Notes under the pieces: generated by a model
What the model was told of the DNA's origin: nothing
The model's input: only the letters and a program-made list of their open reading frames with translations
Databases searched by the model: none
Source: an uncultured Eubacteriales bacterium
GTDB taxonomy: Bacteria; Bacillota; Clostridia; Lachnospirales; CAMVHY01
DNA length: 64,000 nucleotides
Assembly: GCA_948543815.1 (NCBI GenBank)
Contig: CAOVHW010000001.1
Coordinates: forward strand, 138,413-202,412
Direction: 5' to 3'
Made by a program: the position numbers and the translations under genes
Part shown: piece by piece, positions 654-64,000 of the stretch
How positions within the stretch are numbered: position 1 is the stretch's first letter
Layout: the number at the start of each line of letters is the position of its first letter

Positions 654-1859
654 ATGGCGAACGAAAATTTTAATTTAGAAAATCTTTTAAATGGTTTTTC
701 TAACCAAAATTTTGAAAATTACCAAGAGTTTGTTGATGAATCAGATGAATCAGATGAATCAACTCAAGATGAAGACTTCCAAGAATTTTTTAGTGAATTA
801 GACGAACCAACTTAAGATAAAATAACTAATATTTTAGAGAATTTACCGAATATAGAAGGTTATATCGAAAGGTTTAAAAATAGTTTAACAGAATGTTATA
901 GATTGATGCCGTTTAATATGTATAGTAATGGGGTATTTTCTGAGGATATTGATATAATTATTGCTGGAGAGCTTATTTTGATAGAGTTACGAAATAGAGG
1001 ATATATTTCTCCTGAGGAGTCTAATAGATTAAGTCAAATTATAAACGAATTGTTAAATAATGATCTATCTAATACAAGAAATAATAATGCAAAAGAATTT
1101 ATTGATTTTTTGAAAGAAAATTTTAATAATGATTCGCTAATAAAAGATAATTCTTTTCTTTTTGAGGTAGGAGAAAAGCTCTTAGAAAAAAATTCTTCAG
1201 AAATTTTAGAAGATAGGCTTAATTATATTTTAAAAATTTTAAAAGAAAGCCAACCCAACCAATATAATCAAGTTTTAAAAATTCTAAATGATGCAAAATT
1301 AAAAGAGAGATATGAAGAATTTAGAAATGCTTTAATAGAAATTTATGAAAGAGATGAAATAAACGGAACTGAAATTTTTGCTAAAGTTCTTGATGGGATT
1401 ACTGATAGAGGTGTAGAACAAATCGAAGATATTTTGTCCCTTATTGATGAAGGTGAAAAAGGAAAGCATGAAGAACAGGAAACTTTTATATCAGATGATG
1501 AAAATCCAAATGAATTAAATGAAGATTCTGATAGTGATTTTTTTCAAATATTAATGGCTCGAGAAGATATTACCGTAAGCGATATTAAGAGATTAAAGCA
1601 AGTTATTGTGAAATTAAGCCCTGACGAAGTAGTAAAATTGGTTGATGATTTAAAAAAAAATGTTGAAAGTAACGCGCCAAGGAAAAAAATCATTTCACTT
1701 ATTAAAACTGCAGAAAATTATTTAGAAGGGAAAGCACCAAATAGGCCACAGCAACCGATTAAAAAAAGACGTGAGCCTAAAAAGCCACAAATATTTTATA
1801 AAATAACTAACAAATCAAATAAGTTGAAAGCGCAGCGTAAAGGGAAAATGGTCAAGTAA
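654..1859 (+). pseudogene. Modular-repeat orphan protein, paralog 1, split by a single in-frame TAA (813-815)
   Basis: Track ORFs 633-815 and 903-1859 are in the same frame with only one stop between them. The read-through text ...FFSELDEPT*DKITNILENLP... parallels paralog 2 ...FFSKLDEPTQEKIIYILENL.... The SD AAGGAG favours a GTG 651 / ATG 654 start over ATG 633. Confidence 0.6.
735..761 (+). repeat. 3 x 9-bp perfect tandem repeat GATGAATCA (encodes DES-DES-DES)
   Basis: Read directly: gatgaatca gatgaatca gatgaatca, in frame within paralog 1. Confidence 0.9.
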
Positions 1860-16112: not shown

Positions 16113-16889
16113 CTATGAAATATTTTTTTTGATATTAAGCAATGCGTTTTTTTCTAATCGTGAAATTTGTGCTTGACTTATCCCAATTTCTTCTGCAACT
16201 TCTGTTTGTGTCTTGCCTTCAAAAAATCTTAGATGTAAAATCAATTTTTCACGCAATCCTAATTTTTTTATTCCTTCATTTAATGAAAGATTATCTAGCC
16301 AATTCTCATCCGAATTTTTCATATCACTTAATTGATCCATGACAAAAATTGTGTCGCCGCCATCTTTATAAACTGGCTCAAAAAGTGATAGTGGTTCTTG
16401 TATCGCCTCAATCGCATGAATTATTTCATCTTTTGGGAGATTACACTCTTTTGCAATTTCATTTATTGTTGGTTCTTTTGAATCTTTTTTTGTCAACATT
16501 TCTTTTGCCTGTAGCGCTTTATATGCAATATCTTTGAGGGAACGACTAACACGAATTGAATTATTATCACGGAGATGGCGGCGAATTTCACCGATAATCA
16601 TTGGGACTGCATAAGTTGAGAATTGTACGCCAAGATTAATATCGAAATTATCGATAGCTTTAATCAAACCGACGCATCCTATTTGGAAAATATCGTCTAA
16701 AGTTTCACGACGATTAGTAAAACGTTGGATAACGCTTAGGACTAACCGGAGGTTACAGTATATAAATTTTTCACGAGCTAATTTATCACCGGCTAAAATT
16801 TTTTGCAGAAGTACATTTTTTTCATGAGCGGAAAGAATAGGGATATCAGCGGTATTTAAGCCGCATATCTCAACTTTATAATTGAACAA
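16113..16889 (-). CDS. sigG: Sporulation sigma factor SigG
   Basis: KVEICG, NLRLVLSVIQRF, FSTYAVPMIIGEIRRHLRDNNSIRVSRSL, LSLFEPVYKDGGD and EIGISQAQISRLEK closely track B. subtilis SigG. GGAGG precedes TTG 16889 (MFNYKVEICG). Confidence 0.88.
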   Translation of the reverse strand: MFNYKVEICGLNTADIPILSAHEKNVLLQKILAGDKLAREKFIYCNLRLVLSVIQRFTNRRETLDDIFQIGCVGLIKAIDNFDINLGVQFSTYAVPMIIGEIRRHLRDNNSIRVSRSLKDIAYKALQAKEMLTKKDSKEPTINEIAKECNLPKDEIIHAIEAIQEPLSLFEPVYKDGGDTIFVMDQLSDMKNSDENWLDNLSLNEGIKKLGLREKLILHLRFFEGKTQTEVAEEIGISQAQISRLEKNALLNIKKNIS

Positions 16890-17230
16890 AATAAATTTCC
16901 TCCGTTTCAAACTATATTAGTAAAATTTTTTCCGCTCATTCTTTTAATTATTCATCTTAAATTTTTATTAATAAAATCGTAATTAAAAAAAATGGATAAG
17001 TATAAAAGTAATGGAAAATGAATAAAAAAAATGTTTGCACAAATAATATTTACTGAAAGTCGAAAAAAAAGTTATATATGACTTTTATTTTTTTTCTTAC
17101 CGCTTTACGGCAAATATTACAATTTATTAAATTTCTTACTTCTATTCTGATTTAATATTTTTTTACTAAAAATAGTGCTTAACCTTGCTTAATTCTTTTA
17201 TTACATTAGTATTAAATCGTTTTTTGCATA

Positions 17231-17362: not shown

Positions 17363-19837
17363 ATGAAGAAAAAAATTGCTTTTCTCATGGCATCCATTAT
17401 GGCTGTTTCTACAGTTACGATGTCAAAAGTTAATTCCTTTGCTTCTTCTGAAAACAAGTTAAGTAATGGGAATATAACTGTTTCTGAAAAAACTTTGTTC
17501 TATGAGCCAGGCGCTGATGTAACAGTTAATGCTTTAATGGACCAAAGTGATGTTAAGTATCTTGCTGAAGCCAATTATTTAAATATTAATTTGGAAGATG
17601 CAATTAAAGCTGATGCTGAATTTAGTATCGAACTTGAAAATGCAAAATTTGCTTTTGATGCTGGAGAGAAATATTTAAAAGATAAATCTCCGTTAAAAGA
17701 TGCTAGTGCATACGATTCAAAAACTGGAGTTTATACAAGAAATGCAAATGCAGATGTTAAACCAGTTGCAGAATTAGGTTACACTTTAACAGTAAACGAT
17801 GAAAATAATGCAACAGTTAAATTAACAAAAGTAGCTAGCGAAAACACAGTTACTGAAGGTACTGAAGCAACAGTAACAGATAGTGCATCAGAAACAGTTA
17901 CTGAAGGCATTATAAAAATTCCGTTGGTAGTTAGAATGGATGAGACTTTAACATCAGGAACTGCAAAGGTAATTGTTAGAGCTGGTAATAGTGGTTTATC
18001 AAGTAATTCACTTGTATTCGCTACAATTTATAAAGGATCTACAACTACTTCTGTACCATCAAGTGACGTACAAACTGGTAAAAACAAAATTGGAATTCCA
18101 AGAATCGTTATCAAAGAAAATGTAGCTGGTTCAATGCGCGTTAGTGATGGTAATGGTTTCTATTTAGAATTGCCAAGTGGTTACTATTTTAGTAAAAAAC
18201 CTGCAACTGAAGATTTCACTTTCGTAAATGTTAGTGTTGCTGATAAAGATGCAGATTTAGTAACTGAACTTACTAGTGGCGGTAGAATATTAAATGTAAA
18301 ATTTAATAAATTCAGTCCTTCTTCAAATGGTTTAATTGGTCAAATTATAATTAAAAATTTAGAAATACTTGCAAATTCTTCAAATGAGTTGAATGGTAGC
18401 GAAGATATTAAAATCACTATCGATAACTTAGGTAGTTCAGAAATGGTAACTTCTCAAGAATTTTTAGCAGGAACTCGTGTAGATTATGGTTTGACTTTCA
18501 AAACTGATGGAACAGTTCCTACTGTTTTAAGTGGTTACTATGATTCTGCAAATTTAATTAATGACAAAACAAAATCAGTTAAAGTAACAGTTTCTGAAGA
18601 AACAGCTGGTTCTTTAATTAATGGTGGTAATTTAATTTTTACTTTATCTGATAGTGTAAAAATTAATGCTGTAAAAATTGAAGACAGAGAAAACATTACT
18701 CAAGCTAACAAAACTTATGCATTAGAAGATAATACTGATGCAAATGTTGAAGTAAAAGCAAACAAAGTAACTTTAAGAAATATTAGATCAACTACTTCAA
18801 CTACTTCAAGCGATAAATCTAAATTCTCAATTTCTTTCTATTTAAGTGTTGAACCTGGTTTTGAAGGAGATGTAAGTGTATCTGTATCTGGAGATGCTAT
18901 TAGAAATAATACTTCTATGGATCCAGTAGTTATTGCAAAAGCTGTTAATCCTTTAGCTGTAACTGTTGCTACAAATTATATTAAACCTGCTCAAACAATT
19001 GAATTATCTGATATAGTTTTAACAGAACAATTAAACAGCAAAGGTTATTCAGCATTAGAAGAAAGCAAAACTGTATCTATTGGATTTGCAAATAATAATC
19101 ATTATTTATCATTTGTTGGAACTCCAACAATAAAAACAGAAAATGGTTTAACAGTAAAAGATGTAAAGACAAGCAACACTTCAAGTGGTTCTATTCTTAC
19201 ATTTACTATCGATGATGCTTCTTCAAAAAATAAAGTTTCTAAGTTAACAATTTCTGGCCTTAAAGTTGCTGCAAGTGCAAGCACTCCACAAGGAACTTAT
19301 GGATTAGTAATGGGGGGAAATGCTGTAGCGGGGAATAGTACCGCAATAGTATCGGGTACGGACAAAGCAACATTTGCAACTGATGGTATGTTAATTGCAA
19401 AATTGCAATACGGTGGAAAAGTTGCAATGAAGATTACAATTGGTGACAAAGTTGCAGTTATAAATGGTCAAGAAGTTGAAATGAAAATGGCTCCATTTAT
19501 TGATGCGGCAACTGGAACAACTTACATGCAAGCAAGTGATATCGTTAAAGCTACAGGAAAAACTTGCACATTCTTTGACAACAGAATTCAAAACGTTGAA
19601 GGAATTGACAAAACATTATTTGTAACATTTGGCGATAGAACTTTTGAAAAAGGAAAATCAATTGTTAAAATTGCTTCTCAAACTCTTCCTGAAACTATGA
19701 CAAATGAGCAAGGAATTGCAGTTAATATGATTATCAAAGATGACTATACTTGCTTACCATTAAGATACTTTGTAGAAAAAGTATTAGGTCAAACAATTGA
19801 CTGGAATGGTACTGACAGTACAGTAACAGTAAATTAA
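17363..19837 (+). CDS. Secreted cell-surface (S-layer-like) protein with a C-terminal copper-amine-oxidase-N-terminal-like (stalk) domain
   Basis: Signal peptide MKKKIAFLMASIMAVSTVTMSKVNSFA. T/S/V-rich beta-type body. C-terminus CLPLRYFVEKVLGQTIDWNGTDSTVTV. Strong SD AAGGAGG and a strong terminator. Confidence 0.7.
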   Translation: MKKKIAFLMASIMAVSTVTMSKVNSFASSENKLSNGNITVSEKTLFYEPGADVTVNALMDQSDVKYLAEANYLNINLEDAIKADAEFSIELENAKFAFDAGEKYLKDKSPLKDASAYDSKTGVYTRNANADVKPVAELGYTLTVNDENNATVKLTKVASENTVTEGTEATVTDSASETVTEGIIKIPLVVRMDETLTSGTAKVIVRAGNSGLSSNSLVFATIYKGSTTTSVPSSDVQTGKNKIGIPRIVIKENVAGSMRVSDGNGFYLELPSGYYFSKKPATEDFTFVNVSVADKDADLVTELTSGGRILNVKFNKFSPSSNGLIGQIIIKNLEILANSSNELNGSEDIKITIDNLGSSEMVTSQEFLAGTRVDYGLTFKTDGTVPTVLSGYYDSANLINDKTKSVKVTVSEETAGSLINGGNLIFTLSDSVKINAVKIEDRENITQANKTYALEDNTDANVEVKANKVTLRNIRSTTSTTSSDKSKFSISFYLSVEPGFEGDVSVSVSGDAIRNNTSMDPVVIAKAVNPLAVTVATNYIKPAQTIELSDIVLTEQLNSKGYSALEESKTVSIGFANNNHYLSFVGTPTIKTENGLTVKDVKTSNTSSGSILTFTIDDASSKNKVSKLTISGLKVAASASTPQGTYGLVMGGNAVAGNSTAIVSGTDKATFATDGMLIAKLQYGGKVAMKITIGDKVAVINGQEVEMKMAPFIDAATGTTYMQASDIVKATGKTCTFFDNRIQNVEGIDKTLFVTFGDRTFEKGKSIVKIASQTLPETMTNEQGIAVNMIIKDDYTCLPLRYFVEKVLGQTIDWNGTDSTVTVN

Positions 19838-19900: not shown

Positions 19901-20590
19901 ATGCATAAAAAATCATTTGTTTCAGGATTTCTTATTGCTTCAGTTATATTTGGTTCACAACAAATTTTTGCGGTTGGCGGAAAAGTTCAAGCTTATTTAT
20001 GTGATAATTGCAATATTGAGGTTGATGAAGTTAAACTTAATTTGCCAGACGGTATGCGAATTTTAAATTTTGGTGACCGAACTTATACTCCCGCACGTTT
20101 AATTGCAGAAGCTATGGGTGGTACAGTTAAGTGGGATGATTCAACTAAAACTGTAAAAATAACTAAGCCTGAGCCTAAAGTTGTTGAAAAAATTATTGAG
20201 AAGATAGTTGAAGTTCCTGTTGAATCTGAAACTTTTTATCAAAATGTTCCACTTAAAATTGTAAAAAATAATTTTATCTTAAAAGTAAATGGCATCAGTT
20301 CGCGTGATAATTTGACATATATTTATTTGGATGCCGAAAATAAATCTGGTGAAGCTGCCGAAGTTGATTACAGTAATGCGAAAATAAAATCGGGTCAAGA
20401 TGTTTACTCAACAAATATTATGTCAGTTACCGATTGGGGCAACAGTATGGATGTCAATGAAAAACGTGAGGGCAAGGTTATGGTATTCGAAAAAATTTCT
20501 GGAGATAAAATTACTTTGACAATTCCCGTCAAATCTTTGAATACAAACAGTTTTTCTGAAACGTTTGAGTTTAATCTGAAAGTAAACTAA
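19901..20590 (+). CDS. Secreted protein with an N-terminal stalk (copper amine oxidase N-terminal-like) domain
   Basis: Signal peptide. FGDRTYTPARLIAEAMGGTVKWDDSTKTVKI. PEPK linker, then a beta-rich C-terminal half. Confidence 0.55.
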   Translation: MHKKSFVSGFLIASVIFGSQQIFAVGGKVQAYLCDNCNIEVDEVKLNLPDGMRILNFGDRTYTPARLIAEAMGGTVKWDDSTKTVKITKPEPKVVEKIIEKIVEVPVESETFYQNVPLKIVKNNFILKVNGISSRDNLTYIYLDAENKSGEAAEVDYSNAKIKSGQDVYSTNIMSVTDWGNSMDVNEKREGKVMVFEKISGDKITLTIPVKSLNTNSFSETFEFNLKVN

Positions 20591-24240: not shown

Positions 24241-24258
24241 TAAATTTACTAAATAAAA

Positions 24259-24390
24259 CCTTACTTTTCTTGAAAGAAAAGTAACCAAAAGAACTTTAAC
24301 AAAAAAATCTTTGCGTGCAATACGCAAAGATTTTTTTATGAAGTTTCTTATTTTGTTTTACTTTTTTCTTTTCAAAGAAAAAAGTAAAGG
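24259..24390. repeat. Composite intergenic element, copy C (inverted order; ~73 nt near-identical to the reverse complement of copy E)
   Basis: CCTTACTTTTCTTGAAAGAAAAGTAACCAAAAGAACTTTAACAAAAAAATCTTTGCGTGCAATACGCAAAGAT, then TTTATGAAGTTTCTT and a second H3-like hairpin TTTACTTTTTTCTTTTCAAAGAAAAAAGTAAA. Confidence 0.85.
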
Positions 24391-24423: not shown

Positions 24424-24744
24424 TTAAATTGCATTATGAGTAAAGCTTGCAATTTTACATATCGGAATTTCTGTTACTGAGCCTAACCAATTATTGTTGC
24501 AATTATAATTTCCAGAACAATTATTATTCCAAAATCCAAATGGGTTATATCGAAATCTACATGTGTTCCCTATTGGACATGATGGTGCCGCACCAATTCG
24601 TGTGATTAATTTGATATTATTATCGCAGACTCCTGCTAAAACTCCTGTAAATCCTGAGCCTGATAATCCACCGCTAGTTGTAAAGATCGTAACAGTTTGA
24701 CCGATATACCTTAGTAAATTATCTAATGCAAAACTTTCTGACAT
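24424..24744 (-). CDS. Small Cys/Asn/Gly-rich protein, paralog A of a divergent pair (function unknown)
   Basis: AGGAGGG SD before ATG 24744. Shares YIGQTVTIFTTSGGLSG.GFTGVL, PSCP.G, LGSV..IPIC.IA.FTHNAI with 24911-25228. Confidence 0.75.
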   Translation of the reverse strand: MSESFALDNLLRYIGQTVTIFTTSGGLSGSGFTGVLAGVCDNNIKLITRIGAAPSCPIGNTCRFRYNPFGFWNNNCSGNYNCNNNWLGSVTEIPICKIASFTHNAI

Positions 24745-24819
24745 TTCTATCCCTCCTTTCATATTTTTTTTAGTAATTCATTTTGAATTACTAGTACATT
24801 TTATGGAATTTTATTTTAA

Positions 24820-24845
24820 TTGTTACAAGCTATAGCTTGTAACAA
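24820..24845. promoter_or_regulatory. Perfect 26-bp palindrome in the divergent promoter region (candidate operator)
   Basis: TTGTTACAAGCTA|TAGCTTGTAACAA, read directly. Lies between the two divergently transcribed paralogs. Confidence 0.5.
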
Positions 24846-24910
24846 AAATCACCTGCTTGTCATAAATTATTTTTGGGGCCCCTAAATTTTTTTATTGGAG
24901 GTGATTAATA

Positions 24911-25228
24911 ATGCCTGCATTAATTGAAAATATGTATCGCTATATCGGACAGACTGTTACTATTTTTACTACAAGTGGTGGATTATCCGGCAGAGGTTTT
25001 ACTGGTGTCCTATTATCCGTCGATAATAACAATGTTAGATTATTATGTAACGTTGGCGCATCACCATCTTGTCCACTTGGTAGTGCATGTACAAATCGTA
25101 TGAATTCTTACGGTACGATACAAAATAATTTCTTCTTCGGTAATAATAATTTTAATGGGAACCCACTTGGTTCCGTCGCAATTATTCCTATTTGTTCAAT
25201 TGCATGCTTTACTCATAATGCAATATAG
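24911..25228 (+). CDS. Small Cys/Asn/Gly-rich protein, paralog B of the divergent pair
   Basis: GGAGGTG SD. See paralog A; the identical C-terminal FTHNAI is followed by a terminator. Confidence 0.75.
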   Translation: MPALIENMYRYIGQTVTIFTTSGGLSGRGFTGVLLSVDNNNVRLLCNVGASPSCPLGSACTNRMNSYGTIQNNFFFGNNNFNGNPLGSVAIIPICSIACFTHNAI

Positions 25229-25233
25229 AAAGA

Positions 25234-25262
25234 AAAAAATCCGTACATACGGATTTTTTTTT
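25234..25262 (+). terminator. Intrinsic terminator
   Basis: AAATCCGT-ACAT-ACGGATTT plus a T-run. Confidence 0.75.
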
Positions 25263-29295: not shown

Positions 29296-32200
29296 ATGAA
29301 AAATTCTAATTGGGAAAACTTGCTTGGTGAGGCTAACACAAAAAAAATTAAAGATGCCGGGTTAGATAAACTTGTCGATGTTTCTGAACTGACGCCAGAA
29401 AATTTGGAATACGCGCAAGATTTCTTTGATAATTTTGATGTTGAAAATGTGTCAGATTATCTTGGCGATGAATTTACTTTTTTAGATGTTGTGAAAAAAT
29501 TTTATGATTGCCAATTGCCATTGGATGTAGTTTCATATGGAATGCAGCGTAAAATAATTTTGGATCGCCGTTTCTCATTTGATGTGAAAAAAAAAATTGT
29601 TGATGTTTTAAATTCGTTGGAAGAAATTAATTATGTCCAAAAATTTTGGAAATTGTTAGATTTACTAAAAACTGATGACGAATTTTTGAACGCAGAATTT
29701 TATTTTAAAGAAATTGTTTCATCAGACAAGTTATATGAAGAAATTTTAAATGACAAAAAAAATTTACCATCTGCGGTCAATATTGTCAAATATAATATGC
29801 ATAATTTCAAAAATGAGTTGAGTTTCGACAATCTCGATTGGATTGTTGATGTCTTAATGATTTTACCCGTTGAATCGCAAAATATTGTACGTATTTGGAT
29901 TAATCGTGTTAAATCAGATGATGAATGTAAAAAATTGCAGTCATTGCTAGTTTCAATTATAGATTGTCAAAAGTTGACGGATGATATTTCTTATAAAAAA
30001 TGTTCAGTTTCTGAGGCCATAGAAATTTATAATGATATAAAATCAAAAGTTCATAATAAAAATTTATCATCAAAAAATTTGAATAGCGCTTTTAGTTTGA
30101 TTTTAACTTTGAGTGAAGACGAAAATTTTGATGAAAAAAGCTTGAAAACTGTTGTCAAATTAATTTCACTGATTCGTGATGATTATGAATTTGAGCAGTC
30201 AAAAATTTTTATAAATTTAATTTCTGCTTTCGATACCTTGCCAGATATTTTGACTAAAAATAATTTTACATTAATTGAAGTTTTGCCTGTCATGCTTAAA
30301 ATTTATTTTATGAACGCTGGAAGTATTTTGAAAAAAAATTTTAATTTCGATAATGTCCGTGAAGTTGTCAAAATCCTTGAAAGATGTAACAAAGATGATA
30401 GCCAAATAAACAACGTTTTGGAACTTGTTAACAAAATTCAATCGAATGAAGAGTTTGATTACTGTAAAGATTCTTTGTTTAAATTGGCTAAAAATAAAAA
30501 AATGATGCGTGAAATTCAAAACAACAAAATTTCTTTACATGATCAAGTAAAAAAAATGTATATAGAATATTTTCGTGTTTCGTCCGCGAGTTCATACACT
30601 ATTGAAATTATAAAGTTGCATAAATTTAGTTTCAAAATTATTAAGCAAATGGATAGGCTTATATCTGAGCGGCCGGCAGTTTTACGTAGAGTCATTACGA
30701 ATTTGATTTTGAAGTTAAGCAACGATAATGAATTTAGATTTGCAAAAGAATTTTTGTGTACAAATGATTCGTTTGAATCATATGAGCAATCAAATGACAT
30801 TTTGTCGGATATAATTGATTATTATAAATCGTTGTTGCATATAACATTTGACGATAAAAATGAATTGAATATTGTTCATAACACTAATTTGAGTTTTGAA
30901 AATTTAGCTGATGCAATAAACTTAATATCAAGCGAAAAACAAGCTGATAAGGCAAGTAAACTTTCCGCTTTAGTGTCAATGATTTCTGATGATAATGAAT
31001 ATAAAATTTTACGGCCGTTTTTTTATAAATTAATTGATATTAACAAAATTTTTGAACAAAAAACTAAAATTTTATCTGTGTTTTTTGATATGCTTCATGA
31101 TTTGGCGGAAAAATTAAATGTCAGAAAAATTTTTAATAACAGATTTTTGAGCTTACACTGTAAGTCAAAAGCTTTGGATTTTTTGAAAGAAATTGATGAC
31201 AATGAACAACGTGACCGTATCGCAAATTTGATTTGTATTATTAAAAGCGATGATGATTACGACAAAATTTCATCCTATTTCAATAAATTAATGTTGGCCG
31301 AAAATCTTTCATCTGTGATTTTTAATAGTTCAATAAATGTAAATCAAATTATACAAATTTGTAATTTGGGTATCGATAAAGTTTGGCTTAAAAATGTTAT
31401 AAGTTTTGACAGGTTGAAAAAATTAGCAACTTATCTCGTTAAATTAGATGAAGAAATGTCAAATTTACTTATTGATTTTATTTATATGCTTGAAAGTAAT
31501 GAGGAATTTGATAATATTTTCCCGCATATTGATGATTTATTGAATGATAAAAGAATTTTACAGGCCGTTAAAAATGTTGAAATTTCAATAAATGAAATCG
31601 TCAATTTATATAGTTTGGGCGCCGGAAAAATTTTTGCAAACAAAAAAATCAATTTTATTACGATTAGTCAATTAGAAAAAATTTTAAGCAAAATTACTGA
31701 AAAAGAAAAATTTGATTTTGTAATGAACATTGCAACAAATTTGACTGATAAAGAATTTTCTTATATGAAAGAATTTTTGATATCGGGTAATGTTGAATCG
31801 TCAAATAAATCTTACTTAGAACTTGCACGTGATTTTTATGTTAAAAAATTAGGTGTGCGTTACGCTAAGAAAAATAAAGAAATTTTTTTGCAAATATTAA
31901 AATTGGCTGGAAGCTACAAATTTTCGTATGATACTCTTGATCAAATGTCAAAAGCTTTAAGCGATAATAAAAATGAAAAATCACGTATCGCTTTATTTGA
32001 AAAATTTTTGCAGCTGAAAGACGATGATGATTTTGCAAAAAATTCTTCTCAACTTGATGACTTACAAGTCGAAAATAATGAAGTTGTCAAAGAAAGTTTT
32101 AGTATGCGTATGAAAAAAGCTGAAAAAAATGCTGAAAGCTTTAACAATGACCTTGATTCAGGTTCAGGTGGTAATAATAGTTCGTCATTAGTCTTTGACG

Positions 32201-32553
32201 ATGGTAATTTAGTTGTGAATGTTATCGATGTCAATGCAATTTTGCAATTTAAGGACAAAAAAATTGTTATCATGACGAGTGAAAAAAATACTACTTTGGA
32301 TAAAACTACGCGTGGGAAATTTACGACGCTTTCAATTAAAATAAACGAAGAAATTGACAAGAATCTTAATCTTTTTGAAGACCCACAAGATTATTTTGAT
32401 GAATTTATGGATTATTTAAATGAACATGGGGATTCAGCTTCACTTGAAGATGACCAAGATGATGGTGAAACTTATTGTTGTTTGATAACGTCAAAAAGTT
32501 TGGATGAAATTATTACTGAGCACGAAAATTTTATTGCCGAAATTTCTTCCTAA
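29296..32553 (+). CDS. Large orphan repeat protein (1085 aa; ~11 degenerate ~87-aa repeats)
   Basis: Uninterrupted ORF 18 nt after tkt. The motif h-h-x-[ST]-[DN]-[DNE]-x-E-[FY] recurs at about aa 130, 211, 278, 299, 387, 480, 569, 655, 738, 821 and 913. No signal peptide or TM segment. I recognise no known domain. Confidence 0.8.
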   Translation: MKNSNWENLLGEANTKKIKDAGLDKLVDVSELTPENLEYAQDFFDNFDVENVSDYLGDEFTFLDVVKKFYDCQLPLDVVSYGMQRKIILDRRFSFDVKKKIVDVLNSLEEINYVQKFWKLLDLLKTDDEFLNAEFYFKEIVSSDKLYEEILNDKKNLPSAVNIVKYNMHNFKNELSFDNLDWIVDVLMILPVESQNIVRIWINRVKSDDECKKLQSLLVSIIDCQKLTDDISYKKCSVSEAIEIYNDIKSKVHNKNLSSKNLNSAFSLILTLSEDENFDEKSLKTVVKLISLIRDDYEFEQSKIFINLISAFDTLPDILTKNNFTLIEVLPVMLKIYFMNAGSILKKNFNFDNVREVVKILERCNKDDSQINNVLELVNKIQSNEEFDYCKDSLFKLAKNKKMMREIQNNKISLHDQVKKMYIEYFRVSSASSYTIEIIKLHKFSFKIIKQMDRLISERPAVLRRVITNLILKLSNDNEFRFAKEFLCTNDSFESYEQSNDILSDIIDYYKSLLHITFDDKNELNIVHNTNLSFENLADAINLISSEKQADKASKLSALVSMISDDNEYKILRPFFYKLIDINKIFEQKTKILSVFFDMLHDLAEKLNVRKIFNNRFLSLHCKSKALDFLKEIDDNEQRDRIANLICIIKSDDDYDKISSYFNKLMLAENLSSVIFNSSINVNQIIQICNLGIDKVWLKNVISFDRLKKLATYLVKLDEEMSNLLIDFIYMLESNEEFDNIFPHIDDLLNDKRILQAVKNVEISINEIVNLYSLGAGKIFANKKINFITISQLEKILSKITEKEKFDFVMNIATNLTDKEFSYMKEFLISGNVESSNKSYLELARDFYVKKLGVRYAKKNKEIFLQILKLAGSYKFSYDTLDQMSKALSDNKNEKSRIALFEKFLQLKDDDDFAKNSSQLDDLQVENNEVVKESFSMRMKKAEKNAESFNNDLDSGSGGNNSSSLVFDDGNLVVNVIDVNAILQFKDKKIVIMTSEKNTTLDKTTRGKFTTLSIKINEEIDKNLNLFEDPQDYFDEFMDYLNEHGDSASLEDDQDDGETYCCLITSKSLDEIITEHENFIAEISS

Positions 32554-36003: not shown

Positions 36004-36052
36004 AAAAAAAATAGGCAGGCGATATACTCACCTGCCTACCTAATTATTTTTT
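36004..36052. terminator. Bidirectional intrinsic terminator
   Basis: TAGGCAGG-11 nt-CCTGCCTA flanked by an A-run and a T-run, between convergent genes. Confidence 0.75.
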
Positions 36053-36290
36053 AATAACCTGAAACATCAAAAGTTGTTGTGTCATTTTTGTAAAATGTAA
36101 TTGACTCAATCGCACTTAAATTTCCAACTGATGTTTCTATTGCATTTGCTGTTAAAATATTTCTTGCTGCCGTATTGATACGTGTAACGTTTTCTTGGAC
36201 GTCTGCTTTAAAGTCAAATGCATTTGGTATTGTTAAACTAAATAGTTCGTTATCAGTAGTTCTATAAACAATTTTGAAATAAGGATTCAT
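36051..36290 (-). CDS. DUF2922-like small protein
   Basis: 79 aa with its own SD AAAGGAGG. The pattern ...FSLTIPNA..D....NV...A.NIL..NA... resembles DUF2922. Confidence 0.55.
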   Translation of the reverse strand: MNPYFKIVYRTTDNELFSLTIPNAFDFKADVQENVTRINTAARNILTANAIETSVGNLSAIESITFYKNDTTTFDVSGY

Positions 36291-36504: not shown

Positions 36505-36729
36505 TTAATTTATAGTGACATCAATAATTTGAGGTTCGATATATTTTACATATTTTTTCGCAATAGGTTTAGTACCTGAAGACGTTAAAATTATATTAGA
36601 AGTAATAATAAAATCCATATCTTCAGCAAATTGGTCAATATCATAGTAAGCTTTTGCATTAGGGATTTTTACACTAAGATTTCTCCCAAGGTCATTCATA
36701 AAAACAAATTCATAGTAATTTTTATTCAT
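36505..36729 (-). CDS. DUF2922-like small protein
   Basis: 74 aa, SD AAAGGAGG. GRNLSVKIPNAK......FAEDMDFIITSNIILTSSG. Confidence 0.55.
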   Translation of the reverse strand: MNKNYYEFVFMNDLGRNLSVKIPNAKAYYDIDQFAEDMDFIITSNIILTSSGTKPIAKKYVKYIEPQIIDVTIN

Positions 36730-44341: not shown

Positions 44342-44415
<74 letters not shown>

Positions 44416-44429
44416 AAAATAAAAAAAAG

Positions 44430-44502
44430 TGGGTGTAATAGGGCTCGAACCTATGACCCTCTGCTTGTAAGGCAGATGCTCTCCCAGCTGAGCTATACAC
44501 CC
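44430..44502 (-). tRNA. tRNA-Val (anticodon TAC)
   Basis: GGGTGTA/TA/GCTC-AGCTGGGA-GAGC/A/TCTGC-CTTACAA-GCAGA/GGGTC/ATAGG-TTCGAGC-CCTAT/TACACCC/A. No encoded CCA. Confidence 0.9.
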
Positions 44503-44505
44503 TAA

Positions 44506-44582
44506 TGGCGACTCAAAAGGGACTTGAACCCTCGACCTCTGGCGTGACAGGCCAGCGCTCTAACCAACTGAGCTATTGAGCC
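44506..44582 (-). tRNA. tRNA-Asp (anticodon GTC), CCA encoded
   Basis: GGCTCAA/TA/GCTC-AGTTGGTTA-GAGC/G/CTGGC-CTGTCAC-GCCAG/AGGTC/GAGGG-TTCAAGT-CCCTT/TTGAGTC/G/CCA. Confidence 0.9.
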
Positions 44583-46022: not shown

Positions 46023-47990
46023 ATGGAAGATCAAATGATAAATCTGGAAGAACAAATGTCCAATTGGCAAAATGTTATTGATGAAATGAAGCGTTCGGAA
46101 AATTTCAACGAAAGTATAGTATTACAAGACAAAGATGAATCTAAATTTACATTTAAAAAAATTGGTGATGATCTTAAATCTAATGCTGGATTTGATCAAG
46201 TAATTCATCCAACACAAATAAGCATAAAAGAGCAAGAAGCAAATATGAATGCATTACTAGACAAAGTTCTTGAATTTAAAAAACAATATTTTGAAGATTT
46301 TGTAAGTCGACATAAAAGTAAGTATCCTAATGCTAATGTTGAACTAACGATGCAAGATATGCTCTTGCAAAAATATACAAGAGCAGTTATGAGTGATGCA
46401 CATGGCGATTTATTTTCATTATTGTCTGCATTATGTACAATTGGATTTGTAAATGTATCAAAAAATCATTTTTTATATTTTAATTTAACAACAAAGCAAT
46501 TTGTAAAAAGAGAAGAATGCTACCGAATATTTACAGAAAAAATGGAAAAAGAATTTGGAACTCCCTTTTTTGTTGATATTTTTTTGGAACATGCAGAATC
46601 TTTTTTTTGTATTATTAATGATAAAAATGAAAAAATGACGAAAAAAATTGAATTATTGAATAAATACATAAGAGAAAAAAATATATCAAATTTGAGTATT
46701 AGTGCAAATAATGATGTGATAAATTTTAATTTTGCAAAAATTACCATACAAGTCAATAAAATTGTTAAAAAATTCGTTTTATTTGGTTCTGATGAGAAAC
46801 AAAAATTTATTATAAATATAAGTAAAAAAAAATATTGTATAAATGTAATTTTTGATGTTAATAAAAATGAATATATATATAAGCTAAAGCAATGTTTTAC
46901 AGAATGGAAAAACAATTTTCTGAAAGAATTTTTTAGTAAAAATATTAATTCAATTTTTTATGTTATACCAATGTTATCTATAAATCCAATTGCTCTTGAG
47001 GCTCCGGAGCTTTTTGGAAAATTTATTGATTTGGGAGATTGTATTGACAGGGGGTCTGAAACTGTAGCCTGTCTTGTAACTTATGCACTTTTATCAAAGG
47101 CGATGCCTGATTCAATAAAATGTATGCTTGGTAATCATGAAGCTATGCAATCAATGCTTAGATGTGACGATGGTAATTGTTTTTTAGATTTTATTAATTT
47201 TTGTATTGAAAATCAATTGCTAAAACCGGGATATATTGAATCCAATAAAATTGGGGATAAAACAATTTGGCGCTCATATTCACATACAATACTTACAAAA
47301 AAGCATTTGCCAAAACTATTTACTCTTTTAGTTATATCGTCATTTATAGCATCAATGAATGAAGAAGTTGTAGAAGTAGAAAAAATATCTGAGAATACAC
47401 AAATAATAATTAAATCATTTAAAAATTGCTCAAAGAGAGACTTTGATCCTTTAAAACGGCATTTAAGAAACAAATGGCCCGAAATATTTAATAATTTAAG
47501 CGAAGAATTGCGAAATAAATTAAAGAATTTTTTTAAAGATGAAGATTTAACAAAATTGCTTTTGAAATTTTTCATAGTTAATAATAAGGGCAAAACAATT
47601 TTTTATCAGGAATGGCAAAGTTTTTATTCAAAATTAATGGAGTTTGGGTTTACGAATAATGAATTTTTTGAATTGAAATTTGCTATGTGTAGTATTTTTT
47701 ATAATGAATATTATAAAACTGCCAATATTATTTGGAAAAATGTTTTTTTGGGTTTAGCCGAAGAAGATGCAAGATTTATGGGTTGGCTTTTTGGTGAAAG
47801 ATATGTTCCAGAAAATAAATGTGAGCTTTTTGATGATGTAATACAATATCTTGGTCATGATCACGCAAATTTCATATTAATGCCAGAAAACTTAGGCGGT
47901 CTTGTAATATATTTAGATACTTGTAGGAGCGCGGGGTATAGGACGGATAAAGAAGGATTGAATAATGAATCAAGATTAAATTTACTTTAA
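46023..47990 (+). CDS. Orphan 655-aa protein with split PPP/calcineurin-like metallophosphatase motifs
   Basis: SDAHGD (aa 124-129, nt 46392-46409), GDCIDRG (aa 338-344, nt 47034-), GNHE (aa 370-373, nt 47130-), GHDH (aa 611-614, nt 47853-), LDT near the C-terminus. The order is canonical but the motif I-II spacing is ~214 aa instead of ~25-30. Confidence 0.75.
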   Translation: MEDQMINLEEQMSNWQNVIDEMKRSENFNESIVLQDKDESKFTFKKIGDDLKSNAGFDQVIHPTQISIKEQEANMNALLDKVLEFKKQYFEDFVSRHKSKYPNANVELTMQDMLLQKYTRAVMSDAHGDLFSLLSALCTIGFVNVSKNHFLYFNLTTKQFVKREECYRIFTEKMEKEFGTPFFVDIFLEHAESFFCIINDKNEKMTKKIELLNKYIREKNISNLSISANNDVINFNFAKITIQVNKIVKKFVLFGSDEKQKFIINISKKKYCINVIFDVNKNEYIYKLKQCFTEWKNNFLKEFFSKNINSIFYVIPMLSINPIALEAPELFGKFIDLGDCIDRGSETVACLVTYALLSKAMPDSIKCMLGNHEAMQSMLRCDDGNCFLDFINFCIENQLLKPGYIESNKIGDKTIWRSYSHTILTKKHLPKLFTLLVISSFIASMNEEVVEVEKISENTQIIIKSFKNCSKRDFDPLKRHLRNKWPEIFNNLSEELRNKLKNFFKDEDLTKLLLKFFIVNNKGKTIFYQEWQSFYSKLMEFGFTNNEFFELKFAMCSIFYNEYYKTANIIWKNVFLGLAEEDARFMGWLFGERYVPENKCELFDDVIQYLGHDHANFILMPENLGGLVIYLDTCRSAGYRTDKEGLNNESRLNLL

Positions 47991-51816: not shown

Positions 51817-51920
51817 GATAATCACTTTTTTCCTAAAAATTATATTTGTGATGAAATAATTTTTTGTAACGTTTAACATTTTTGCACATAAATTATAAAT
51901 AAAAAAAAGGTGACGGTTTT

Positions 51921-52511
51921 ATGAATGAAATTTGTTATGTAAGATTTTTAAATGCTTCAGCAAATTCACCCGCTTTTGATATTTATGTTAATGATAAACT
52001 TTTTGCGAGTGCACTAAGTTATAAAAACTTTACGGAATATTTTAAAGGAAATATGGGTGAGTACAACATAAAAATTTATAAAGCTGGCGATAAAAAAAAT
52101 ATTATTTTACAGGAAAATGTTGAACTATTTATGAACAATATTTATACGATAGCGATAATAGATATTTCAAACGGTTTGACATTAAATTTAATAGGTGACC
52201 ATTTACGTAGTCTTGATAAAAATTATGCGTATATAAGATTTATAAATTTATCGCCAAGTTTACGAAATTTAGATATCGTTATAAATAACGTACTTGTAAT
52301 TTCAGATTTAGAGTATGGTGTTGAGTCAAATTATCTTAAAATTTTACCCGGCACTTATAATTTTAAAGCTATTTCGTATGGGGAATTAGTTCTCGAAAAT
52401 CCACGATTAGTTTTAGATGCTGGTAAAATTTATTCGGGATATATTGTAGGCAATGAGGGTGATATAAAAATTTTATTACCGCTTGAGGGTGCAACTTATT
52501 TGAAATTCTAA
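51921..52511 (+). CDS. DUF4397 domain protein
   Basis: Two repeats of the pattern (V/I)RF(L/I)N(A/L)SP...(D/L)DI(Y/V)(V/I)N, typical of DUF4397. Confidence 0.55.
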   Translation: MNEICYVRFLNASANSPAFDIYVNDKLFASALSYKNFTEYFKGNMGEYNIKIYKAGDKKNIILQENVELFMNNIYTIAIIDISNGLTLNLIGDHLRSLDKNYAYIRFINLSPSLRNLDIVINNVLVISDLEYGVESNYLKILPGTYNFKAISYGELVLENPRLVLDAGKIYSGYIVGNEGDIKILLPLEGATYLKF

Positions 52512-62069: not shown

Positions 62070-62104
62070 AAAAAAAACTTTGCACATTCTGCAAAGTTTT
62101 TTTT
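62070..62104. terminator. Bidirectional intrinsic terminator
   Basis: ACTTTGCA-CATTC-TGCAAAGT flanked by an A-run and a T-run, between convergent genes. Confidence 0.75.
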
Positions 62105-64000
62105 ATGTTTCAATTTGTTTAGGATTTTGCGGAATCATTTGTGGGATTTTAGATAATAAATTTGAAGACGATGTGGACCTTGGCATCGGTAAACTTTCTG
62201 ATAAAGTTTTAGTATTATTTAAACTTGTATTTCTTCTTTTTGATTTAGTTGGAACTAAATTAGATGAAGATGAATTTATATTTTTTGTAACGGGAAAATT
62301 TAATTCTGGAAAAAGTAAATCAGAAAATGATTGTCTTATTTTTTTATTTTTTGTTCCAATCGGAATATTTTGTTCAAATTTTGAAATTGTTTCTGGATTA
62401 GATAAATAACATTGTAAATCATCATGTGAATTTGTTAGTTTATAAAAATTTTCTTCACGTCTTGAATATTCTAATATTAATTCTTGTGTTGAAATTTCTA
62501 GTTCTGCAAAACTTATTTCATAATTATCAAAAAACGCCAAAGAAATTTTAGTTAAATTTGCTATTTCAATAATTTGTTGTTCGTACTTTTTTATAGAGTA
62601 TAAAAATATTAAGGCTTGTAAGTTTACAGGTAAATCGTTAAATTTTAAATTTGATATTAAATTTTTTTCTATAGATAAAACATTTGATTTAATACGATCA
62701 TTTAGAACACTATGGCAAGATTTATCAGGTTCTAATATATGTAAAAAAAACTCGGGCTCTTTAATTGCTATTAAAATTAAAATTTTTGTTGTGGGATTTA
62801 AAGATGAAAATTTTATTTCTTCATGATTTTCTGTTTGTATAATTGTTTCAGCATTTATAAAAAAATTTTCTTGTGAATTATGTAAAGAACGTTTTAATAA
62901 AATTATAAAAGAAAAAGCTTGCATTTCATAGGAAAGTTGTTCATAGTTATTTTTATTTTCATTTTTATGAAATACAAAAAATTTTTCTTCGGAATTTAAT
63001 GAAGCTAATTGGAGATTGTCAAAATTTTCGTTCATTAATATATCTGGAATTAAAATCTCTTTATTTTTAAGATTTAATGATTTAATACTACGAATTGCAT
63101 CAGCAGGATATTTTTTACTAAAAAAGTCTATTAATTCATTAATACGATTAAATTTATCTAAAATAATAATCATTTCATTTTTATTATCATTGTTTGTATT
63201 TTCGAGAGAATTATAAAAATATTCTTTTAAATCTTGTGGAAATTCTTCTATATATTCAGCAATAAAAGTAAAAGCTTTATATTCATTAAAAATTAAATCA
63301 AATAAAGAAATTTTTTCTTTATAAGATAAATAATTTTCAGCAAAAAATGATTTAAATATTTGAAGAGTAATATTTACAAATGATTTTCTTTTGTCATTAA
63401 AACAATGATAGAAAATTTTTTTTTGATTTGGAGTAAGATGAGAAAAAATTATTTCACGTAATTTATTTATTTGTGGTTTATTATCCCAGTATTTTAGAAA
63501 AAATATTAAGAAAAAATCATTTTTTGAATTTTGAATTATATTTTTAGTTTCTTCGCTAATTAATATTTCAAAGATAATTGATTTATCTTCATTAGAAATT
63601 TTTCCCCAAGATTTAAAGAAACTTTGCCAAATTCTATGTGCTTCAACAGAATCATCATTAAAATATGGATGATATTTTGCTCCAACTTCAAAAATTATTC
63701 TAAATAAATTTTTTTTTATTGCAATCGTTGGTAAACAAAAAAAATAATCTTGAAAAGAAAATTTTTCTACAAGGTTAAAATAAAAATTTTGTACTTCTTT
63801 TGATTCATTTATTTTTGATAATGCATAAAAAAAATTTTTTCGAAAATCACCGATATTGATTATTTTTTTTCTACCATTACTAAAAAAATTTTGTTCAAAA
63901 TCAACATTTCCATCAAACATTTTAAATAATTGTTGAGAAGAAAATTCGTTTAAAAGATAAATGATTTGATTTTCCTCAAATAATATTAAATATGCAAGTT
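62103..64000 (-). CDS. Large orphan protein (more than 630 aa; 5' end beyond the window)
   Basis: The frame stays open from the track ATG 63920 to the window edge (LAYLILFEENQIIYLLNEFSSQQLFKMFDG...). N/K/F/E/I-rich. S/T/N/P-rich C-terminal tail. No TM segment, and no motif I recognise. Confidence 0.7.
   Translation of the reverse strand, partial: LAYLILFEENQIIYLLNEFSSQQLFKMFDGNVDFEQNFFSNGRKKIINIGDFRKNFFYALSKINESKEVQNFYFNLVEKFSFQDYFFCLPTIAIKKNLFRIIFEVGAKYHPYFNDDSVEAHRIWQSFFKSWGKISNEDKSIIFEILISEETKNIIQNSKNDFFLIFFLKYWDNKPQINKLREIIFSHLTPNQKKIFYHCFNDKRKSFVNITLQIFKSFFAENYLSYKEKISLFDLIFNEYKAFTFIAEYIEEFPQDLKEYFYNSLENTNNDNKNEMIIILDKFNRINELIDFFSKKYPADAIRSIKSLNLKNKEILIPDILMNENFDNLQLASLNSEEKFFVFHKNENKNNYEQLSYEMQAFSFIILLKRSLHNSQENFFINAETIIQTENHEEIKFSSLNPTTKILILIAIKEPEFFLHILEPDKSCHSVLNDRIKSNVLSIEKNLISNLKFNDLPVNLQALIFLYSIKKYEQQIIEIANLTKISLAFFDNYEISFAELEISTQELILEYSRREENFYKLTNSHDDLQCYLSNPETISKFEQNIPIGTKNKKIRQSFSDLLFPELNFPVTKNINSSSSNLVPTKSKRRNTSLNNTKTLSESLPMPRSTSSSNLLSKIPQMIPQNPKQIET

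Follow-up and report, generated by a model that had tools for sequence, protein, structure and literature searches.

We investigated a divergently transcribed pair of small genes in a 64-kb stretch of DNA (hereafter, the window: 64,000 nucleotides, positions 138,413 to 202,412 of contig CAOVHW010000001.1, assembly GCA_948543815.1) from an uncultured Eubacteriales bacterium of the class Clostridia. The pair, at 24424-25228 of the window, encodes paralogous proteins of 106 and 105 amino acids (aa), as a preliminary interpretation made without database searches (the sequence-only reading) had proposed. Sequence comparisons place both proteins in an undescribed, widespread, Clostridia-restricted family of ~11 kDa proteins, the genes of which are preceded by a conserved promoter motif of apparent sigma-K type and the products of which are predicted to adopt a small beta-barrel fold.

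A divergent pair of old paralogs

The two proteins align over their full length with 62% identity and 74% positives (E 8e-36), in agreement with the end-to-end alignment drawn in the sequence-only reading. The same codon is used at 32 of the 64 identical residues, third-position identity is 46%, and the Nei-Gojobori (NG86) estimates are dN 0.34 and dS 1.81, the latter near saturation, giving a dN/dS of ~0.19. The pair is therefore an old duplication kept under purifying selection, which is what the first inspection had suggested. The product of the plus-strand gene, which we denote type A, carries VRLLC after the third predicted strand and ends in NPLGSVAIIPICSIACFTHNAI, and that of the minus-strand gene, type B, carries KLIT after the same strand and NWLGSVTEIPICKIASFTHNAI at the C-terminus. 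Both are rich in cysteine, glycine and asparagine (5-6 Cys, 12 Gly and 14-15 Asn per ~105 aa) and poor in basic residues (only 4-6 Lys plus Arg per protein), with a grand average of hydropathy (GRAVY) of 0.1-0.3, and no signal peptide or hydrophobic segment is visible in the sequence of either. The G+C content of the window is 30%.

Strong Shine-Dalgarno (SD) sequences had been noticed ahead of both genes, and both were located (Table 1). The longest minus-strand open reading frame (ORF), 24424-24762, would start at an upstream ATG at 24762 and encode 112 aa (MKGGIE...). This ATG is probably not the true start, and the product probably has 106 aa, because the AGGAGGG element sits directly ahead of ATG 24744 and the additional "MKGGIE" would amount to a translated ribosome-binding site.

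Table 1. Coordinates of the paralogous genes and associated sequence elements within the window (CDS, coding sequence; HMM, hidden Markov model; NJ, neighbour-joining; UTR, untranslated region)
Feature	Position	Strand	Description
Hairpin flanked by A and T runs	24299..24339	.	between mecA (+, ends 24240) and the minus gene
AU-rich hairpin	24357..24388	-	directly 3' of the minus-gene stop; without U-run
Type-B paralog CDS	24424..24744	-	106 aa + stop; ORF, start from SD spacing, family HMM E 1e-47, B clade of NJ tree
SD sequence AGGAGGG of minus gene	24751..24757	-	6 nt before ATG 24744; from sequence
5'-UTR stem-loop of minus gene	24771..24793	-	10-bp stem, 3-nt loop; begins 3 nt past the -10 box
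Putative sigma-K-type promoter of minus gene	24797..24826	-	-35 GTAACA (24821-24826), 15-nt spacer, -10 CATAAAATG (24797-24805)
Perfect 26-nt palindrome TTGTTACAAGCTATAGCTTGTAACAA	24820..24845	.	two back-to-back -35 boxes plus flanks; from sequence
Putative sigma-K-type promoter of plus gene	24839..24869	+	-35 GTAACA (24839-24844), 16-nt spacer, -10 CATAAATTA (24861-24869)
SD sequence GGAGGTG of plus gene	24897..24903	+	7 nt before ATG 24911; from sequence
Type-A paralog CDS	24911..25228	+	105 aa + stop; ORF, family HMM E 3e-52, A clade
Predicted intrinsic terminator of plus gene	25231..25262	+	14-bp stem including A/U-run pairs, then U-run; -13.9 kcal/mol, z -6.1

A widespread protein family restricted to Clostridia

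Homology searches with the plus-gene protein yielded 470 clusters at 90% identity, and those started from a Clostridium-type member yielded 747; an exhaustive HMMER scan gave 309 clusters at 50% identity. The family is present in at least 296 loci of a one-genome-per-species GTDB collection, and all hosts are Clostridia. These include many termite-gut Defluviitaleaceae, metagenome-assembled genomes (MAGs) from mouse, human and rabbit gut, Tyzzerella, Ruminiclostridium and Anaerovoracaceae, along with the cultured Clostridium sp. YIM B02515, C. swellfunianum, Clostridium sp. USBA 49 and Clostridiales oral taxon 876 F0540. The window itself is matched by a gut "uncultured Clostridia" MAG (GCA_948506575.1), and 47 contigs carry a protein identical to the type-A product (P0001).

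All members are named "hypothetical" or "uncharacterized" at the source, and a look-up of cluster members returned "hypothetical protein" only. Pfam and NCBIfam scans of both paralogs and of 38 members gave no model above noise. The sub-threshold matches were to lustrin Cys-rich repeats, to a CCCH finger and to the C-terminal SH3 domain of RimP, the last being the only recurring one (13 of the 38 members, best E 0.008). No match to the DUF2642 (PF10842), LSM or Hfq models was found for the two paralogs or the 38 members at E<=10, with the proviso that HMMER filters may mask matches above E ~0.1 in these scans; the link to DUF2642 offered in the sequence-only reading was thus not supported. A family-profile search of all PDB sequences returned nothing relevant, and literature searches on DUF2642, Sm-like coat proteins and the Mnx cryo-EM structure returned no description of the family. 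The family had no match in phage and plasmid collections, and a mobile-element origin was rejected on this ground. The outcome that the sequence-only reading held against a spore-related role, a clear database family of known non-spore function, did not emerge: the family is without a database model.

Judged from the alignment, conservation is extreme for a protein of such size. The first conserved block reads (R)YIGQTVTIFTTSGGLSGSGFTGVL...V(R/K)LL...G-x2-P-x-C-P-x-G-S-x-C and is followed by a variable insert, 12-67 residues long, in which Gly, Asn, Arg/Asp, Phe, Cys and Tyr abound, and then by the last block, N-P/W-L-G-x-V-x2-IP-x3-IA-x-FTHNAI. Two cysteines are invariant family-wide, and a histidine near the C-terminus is invariant or nearly so. 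In most members F-[TV]-H-N-A-[IV] is the literal C-terminus; the Clostridium sensu stricto branch adds GSGW-type tails. The median member has 6 Cys and a pI of 5.3, with 15% Gly and ~4% basic residues.

A sigma-K-type promoter motif precedes most family genes

The consensus used to classify the promoters was taken from a study of C. difficile, not from the host. In that species, the mapped sigma-E and sigma-K promoters have a common -10 element and differ in the -35 element, which is ATA for sigma-E versus AC for sigma-K, and both are close to the B. subtilis consensus (PMC3789822). We compared 97 family genes with 693 neighbouring control genes from the same loci. The exact pattern AC-N16/17-CATAnnnTA occurred <=220 nt upstream of 44 of the 97 family genes versus 8 of the 693 controls, with a background density of 0.014 per 220 nt. 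The extended form GT[AC]AC[AC]-N15/16-CATAnnnTA, matched at 11-12 of 12 positions, preceded 77 of the 97 family genes (79%) versus 4 of the 693 controls (0.6%). When sites were anchored on the -35 box alone, CATA was found at the right spacing in 71 of 93, so that the result does not depend on the way in which sites were picked. The spacer sequences between the -35 and -10 boxes are not conserved, which argues that the two boxes themselves are under selection. By its sequence, the family promoter motif, GTAACA-N15/16-CATAnnnT(A/G), is of the sigma-K type, and we infer that the family genes would depend on sigma-K in vivo.

Within the pair under study, the plus-gene promoter is an exact AC-N17-CATAnnnTA match (24842-24869), and the minus-gene promoter matches at 11 of 12 positions. 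The strict motif, with A or G as the last base, occurs twice in the 64 kb, both strands considered, once ahead of each paralog. The -35 boxes stand back to back and form, with their flanks, a perfect palindrome (Table 1), which was considered as the operator of a regulator. This possibility was rejected: among 13 loci with adjacent pairs, most have the TGTTAC...GTAACA arrangement of back-to-back -35 boxes, and since the spacing varies among them, there is no need to invoke a separate operator.

Apart from these two sites, the window has a single near-match to the family promoter, GTAACG-N15-CATAAATTA (51866-51895, +), 55 nt upstream of an ORF (51921-52511, +) that encodes a 196-aa DUF4397 protein (Pfam E 2e-39). 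From its upstream sequence, this is possibly another late mother-cell gene.

Both paralogs are predicted to form an Sm-like barrel

AlphaFold was run on the two paralogs separately, with alignments of 38 and 79 sequences, and both models share the same topology: an N-terminal helix, three strands, a disordered stretch and two C-terminal strands (H2-9, E15-20, E30-37, E41-46, E88-93 and E97-101 in one, with the same layout in the other). The core is modelled with a predicted local distance difference test score (pLDDT) of 80-88, and the disordered stretch, ~36 residues between strands 3 and 4 with pLDDT below 50, comprises the CPxGSxC motif and the variable insert.

Foldseek searches of PDB with both models returned, at the top, MnxE and MnxF of Bacillus sp. 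PL-12 (9bxa), with E 2.1e-3 to 2.8e-2 and template-modelling (TM) scores of 0.47-0.63. These orphan proteins of ~12 kDa, for which no homologs were known, alternate in an E3F3 hexamer that is attached to MnxG, a manganese oxidase localised to the exosporium; a disulfide is present in MnxE, and Cu is bound by both MnxE and MnxF (PMC5622069). Below them come LSm/Sm proteins, Hfq, Gemin6/7 and the filament of GerQ (8zra), a Bacillus coat protein whose nine-subunit rings stack into filaments (PMC11405398). Many Sm, LSm and Hfq chains have a Foldseek probability of 0.9-1.0 with E 0.04-0.3, and the matches also include a diheme cytochrome c and a few unrelated chains. Both paralogs are thus predicted to be Sm-like small beta-barrels, an assignment at the level of fold only because no match reaches E 1e-3. 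At that level the models bear out the sequence-only impression of an Sm-like segment, since both contain the helix and five strands and the matches listed are mostly Sm-type barrels.

Two subfamilies, divergent pairing and gene neighbourhood

In an NJ tree built with 95 members of the fetched 12-kb loci, an A clade, which includes the plus gene and is characterised by VRLL... and NPLGAV-x-VIP, is distinct from a B clade, which includes the minus gene and is characterised by KLIT... and the same C-terminal NWLGSVTEIPICKIASFTHNAI. A third branch (FVHNAV...) often occurs in tandem multi-copy arrays, as in Clostridiales oral taxon 876 F0540, with four same-strand tandem copies (locus L071, 4331-6330); Clostridium sp. 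YIM B02515 has at least four family genes. The expanded copies of Clostridium sensu stricto have FVHNAV-GSGW tails and inserts that are charged, rich in Arg, Asp and Glu, and not Gly/Asn-rich. In an Anaerovoracaceae MAG, a very divergent extra paralog without the SGGxSGxG loop (HMM E 8e-8; locus L067, 5506-5847, +) lies directly upstream of a normal member.

Adjacent pairs were found at 13 loci, including the window, and all 13 consist of one A and one B gene in divergent, head-to-head orientation; four more genomes carry A and B on separate contigs. The duplication thus predates the split of several Clostridia lineages in which both copies were retained, so that the A and B products would be non-redundant and, possibly, cooperate. 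When neighbours up to 6 kb away were clustered for 79 loci and the window, no conserved neighbour emerged besides the A/B pairing. The neighbours in the window are mecA, asp23, a Dak2/FakA-like gene and a transketolase gene, of which mecA and asp23/dak2 are specific to the lineage of the window. The absence of a conserved neighbour is expected for scattered monocistronic genes, and transfer of function from an operon context was dropped because there is no conserved neighbourhood.

Terminators and hairpins

The sequence-only reading assigned each gene its own terminator. This holds for the plus gene, which is followed by a predicted intrinsic terminator (Table 1); that of the minus gene looks shared with the convergent mecA. 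The 24299-24339 hairpin is probably a bidirectional terminator common to both, as judged by its flanking A and T runs, and the whole 128-nt segment folded there reaches -32.4 kcal/mol (z -7.4). Three consecutive hairpins (24258-24388) occupy the 183 nt that separate mecA from the minus gene; two similar AU-rich ones (~24258-24288 and 24357-24388) flank the central one, and none of the three has an Rfam match. An Rfam search of the window and the locus gave three tRNAs elsewhere and sub-threshold terminator-like noise, and no riboswitch or small RNA that would account for the intergenic hairpins.

The minus gene also has a 5'-UTR stem-loop, contained in a 45-nt segment that folds at -8.7 kcal/mol (z -6.0). 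The homologous hairpin at locus L006 retains its pairing through compensatory base changes, and the structure may stabilise the 5' end of the mRNA. Hairpins with covarying stems around a conserved GTACA loop open the 5' UTR of many Defluviitaleaceae type-A genes (for example, GGAGTGTACAACTCC). A 5'-UTR hairpin as a family-wide feature was rejected: only ~30% of the family promoters have one (z below -1.5), which makes it a feature of lineages.

Candidate structural proteins of the spore coat or exosporium

Taken together, promoter, predicted fold and composition lead us to favour, with moderate confidence, the interpretation that the A and B proteins are late mother-cell structural proteins of the spore coat or exosporium. 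The absence of a signal peptide, the few charges, the cysteines, the low-complexity loop, the sigma-K-type promoter, the scattered monocistronic genes and a fold prone to form rings would all suit building blocks of these layers. A spore-related role had already been suspected from the cysteine pattern and the Asn/Gly/Phe-rich insert, and it gains from the family-wide conservation of the promoter motif and from the sigG gene in the window (16113-16910, -). SigG was identified with the NF006071/PRK08215 model (425.6 bits versus a cut-off of 372) and falls below the TIGR02850 cut-off; as it is encoded here, the host probably has machinery for endospore formation.

In the scheme that we envisage, each gene would be transcribed as a monocistronic unit from its own sigma-K-type promoter, the two promoters standing back to back, so that the mother cell would produce the proteins late in sporulation. 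Without a signal peptide, they would be transferred to the forming spore from the cytoplasm of the mother cell and become structural parts of its coat or exosporium. There they would probably assemble into rings, possibly mixed A/B ones, by analogy with Sm-fold proteins, MnxE/MnxF and GerQ, and the invariant Cys pair and the C-terminal His could lock the rings through disulfides or a bound metal. The A/B hetero-ring is a tentative detail of this scheme, drawn by analogy. A bolder extension, which we regard as doubtful as a whole, would have alternating A/B Sm-like hetero-rings, cross-linked through Cys-Cys-His by disulfides or metal, form a lattice that, in many Clostridia of gut and termite gut, is a major outer spore layer; a hypervariable loop displayed on the spore would set species-specific surface properties, and the family would join GerQ and MnxE/F in one Sm-fold spore-surface superfamily.

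Several observations weigh against a structural role on the spore surface or against the grounds on which we propose it. The -35 box GTAACA agrees at 4 of 6 positions with TTGACA, the box of sigma-A, the minus-gene promoter scores 9 of 12 in a generic sigma-70 scan, and the sigma-K regulon also includes non-coat proteins. Within the part of this genome that was covered, the 64-kb window, no sigK gene was found. The models are of moderate confidence (mean pLDDT 65; predicted TM score, pTM, 0.53), the region of the invariant cysteines is modelled at pLDDT below 50, and the best Foldseek matches stay above the 1e-3 threshold noted earlier. No sequence-level link to MnxE/F was detected, and a profile-profile comparison by hhalign of the 79-sequence family alignment with a 40-sequence GerQ alignment was not significant (E 0.03, probability 1.7%). 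Finally, the literature searches gave no proteome data for any family host.

Among the alternatives, the proteins could be accessories in the manner of MnxE/F, that is, an alternating A/B hetero-hexamer that binds Cu, Zn or Fe through Cys-Cys-His and acts as a scaffold or redox partner of a spore-surface enzyme. MnxE and MnxF chains head the Foldseek lists for both independent models, the side-by-side arrangement of small paralogs is the same, and the two invariant cysteines together with the near-C-terminal histidine would suit metal binding. However, the 79 loci have neither a multicopper oxidase nor another conserved partner gene within 6 kb, many genomes have a single family gene in the fetched loci, the Foldseek E values are weak at an identity of 11-19%, and the profile search of PDB misses 9bxa. 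Moreover, the hosts are gut Clostridia, a class generally regarded as strict anaerobes, in which O2-dependent Mn oxidation is implausible. We consider this alternative unlikely.

Quite unlikely, too, is a clostridial counterpart of GerQ, which would form rings or filaments in the inner coat and serve as the adaptor by which a germination enzyme, cortex-lytic or other, is anchored. The nine-subunit rings of GerQ, the presence of 8zra_A among the structural matches and a common N-terminal pattern, IEN-x2-R-x3-G-x-T-x-TI, all speak for it; the pattern was detected by pairwise BLASTP against the GerQ core taken from PDB (E 0.007 over 44 residues) and recurs in the same register in the hhalign alignment. 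That alignment, however, is the one that fell short of significance with a purpose-built GerQ alignment, on which basis homology to GerQ was rejected; the Pfam Spore_GerQ model matched neither the two paralogs nor the 38 members, and no cwlJ-like conserved neighbour accompanies the genes.

A non-structural role, as an Sm/Hfq-like RNA-binding regulator active in the mother cell late in sporulation, would be in keeping with the predicted fold, with the many Hfq and LSm structural matches and with the weak RimP C-terminal SH3 matches. It is very unlikely in view of the paucity of basic residues, the acidic median pI, the lack of any Pfam LSM or Hfq match, and the combination of many cysteines with a hypervariable low-complexity insert, which is atypical of RNA chaperones. 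A ribosomally made peptide precursor or secreted Cys-rich toxin or bacteriocin, with a conserved leader and a variable core, is hardly credible: small size, several cysteines and a variable middle would fit, but there is no visible signal peptide or leader-cleavage motif and no conserved modification enzyme, transporter or immunity gene nearby, both ends are highly conserved and jointly form the predicted globular barrel, and the promoter is of the sporulation type.

Knowledge of the coats and exosporia of clostridial spores is poor, and few of their proteins are shared with Bacillus. If the A and B proteins are indeed coat or exosporium components, they would represent a new structural building block in spore-surface biology, and GerQ, MnxE/F and this family would be joined by a common small-barrel ring architecture. 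A surface-exposed hypervariable loop could, moreover, lend itself to spore display or to the typing of uncultured spore formers of the gut. As a well-defined family, with at least 296 species, strict motifs, a promoter signature and a predicted fold, it is directly testable in cultured Clostridium, and the motif GTAACA-N15/16-CATAnTAT offers a practical means of detecting late mother-cell genes among uncultured Clostridia.

Other features of the window

Four ORFs of 318-1085 aa, 29296-32553 (+), 46023-47990 (+), 62103-63920 (-) and 903-1859 (+), have no NCBIfam match, and the first three, the only ones of the four scanned against Pfam, have no Pfam match either; the 1085-aa ORF comes after the transketolase gene in all related contigs. 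Two ORFs, 17363-19837 (+) and 19901-20590 (+), encode proteins with copper amine oxidase N-terminal-like domains, one of them of 824 aa with a signal-peptide-like start, and these are probably cell-envelope proteins. Two small adjacent ORFs, 36051-36290 (-) and 36505-36729 (-), encode proteins of 79 and 74 aa, one of which matches DUF2922 and the other of which has no match. Three clustered tRNA genes lie at 44342-44582 (-).

Comparison with known systems

The closest resemblance of the predicted structures is to MnxE/MnxF (9bxa chains B and E), the best match for the models of both paralogs. Like these, the family consists of orphan proteins of ~11-12 kDa encoded by two side-by-side paralogs, and the origin of MnxE/MnxF, from a spore former and tied to the spore surface, can be likened to the setting proposed for the family. 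Unlike MnxE/F, the family shows no sequence similarity to these proteins (its profile misses 9bxa at E<=10, and the structural matches are 11-19% identical), is encoded by divergent monocistronic genes rather than an operon, has no multicopper oxidase adjacent in the 79 loci plus the window, possesses a long variable insert and the FTHNAI C-terminus, and resides in Clostridia.

GerQ (YwdL, PF09671) may have a similar small-barrel core, 8zra_A standing in 24th place among the matches of the type-B model, with a TM of 0.52 normalised to the query and 0.68 to the target and a weak E of 0.17, and it has the same N-terminal pattern. It differs in that, among the hits seen, it is confined to Bacilli, has a long Gln/Pro-rich N-terminal extension, and lacks both the internal Cys/Gly/Asn insert and the FTHNAI tail. 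The likeness to Sm, LSm and Hfq proteins lies in the predicted N-terminal helix and five bent strands, with dozens of structural matches, and in the position of the variable segment between strands 3 and 4, where Sm proteins also vary; unlike them, the family is acidic to neutral, Cys-rich and without a match to Sm or Hfq sequence models.

CsxA of C. sporogenes, CotY/ExsY, and CdeC/CdeM of C. difficile are synthesised late in the mother cell and form disulfide-stabilised arrays; to our knowledge, their folds are not Sm-like. As small or medium-sized Cys-rich proteins they resemble the family functionally, in a comparison by description only. CsxA is presented as a cysteine-rich protein in a paper on spore-surface architecture and self-assembly in C. 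sporogenes and C. botulinum (PMC7333573). We assign the family to none of GerQ, MnxE/F, Sm/Hfq and DUF2642, which it would resemble in fold, and GerQ and MnxE/F also in setting. The known category that it extends is that of small cysteine-rich spore-surface proteins, within which the family is new, without being a categorically new system.

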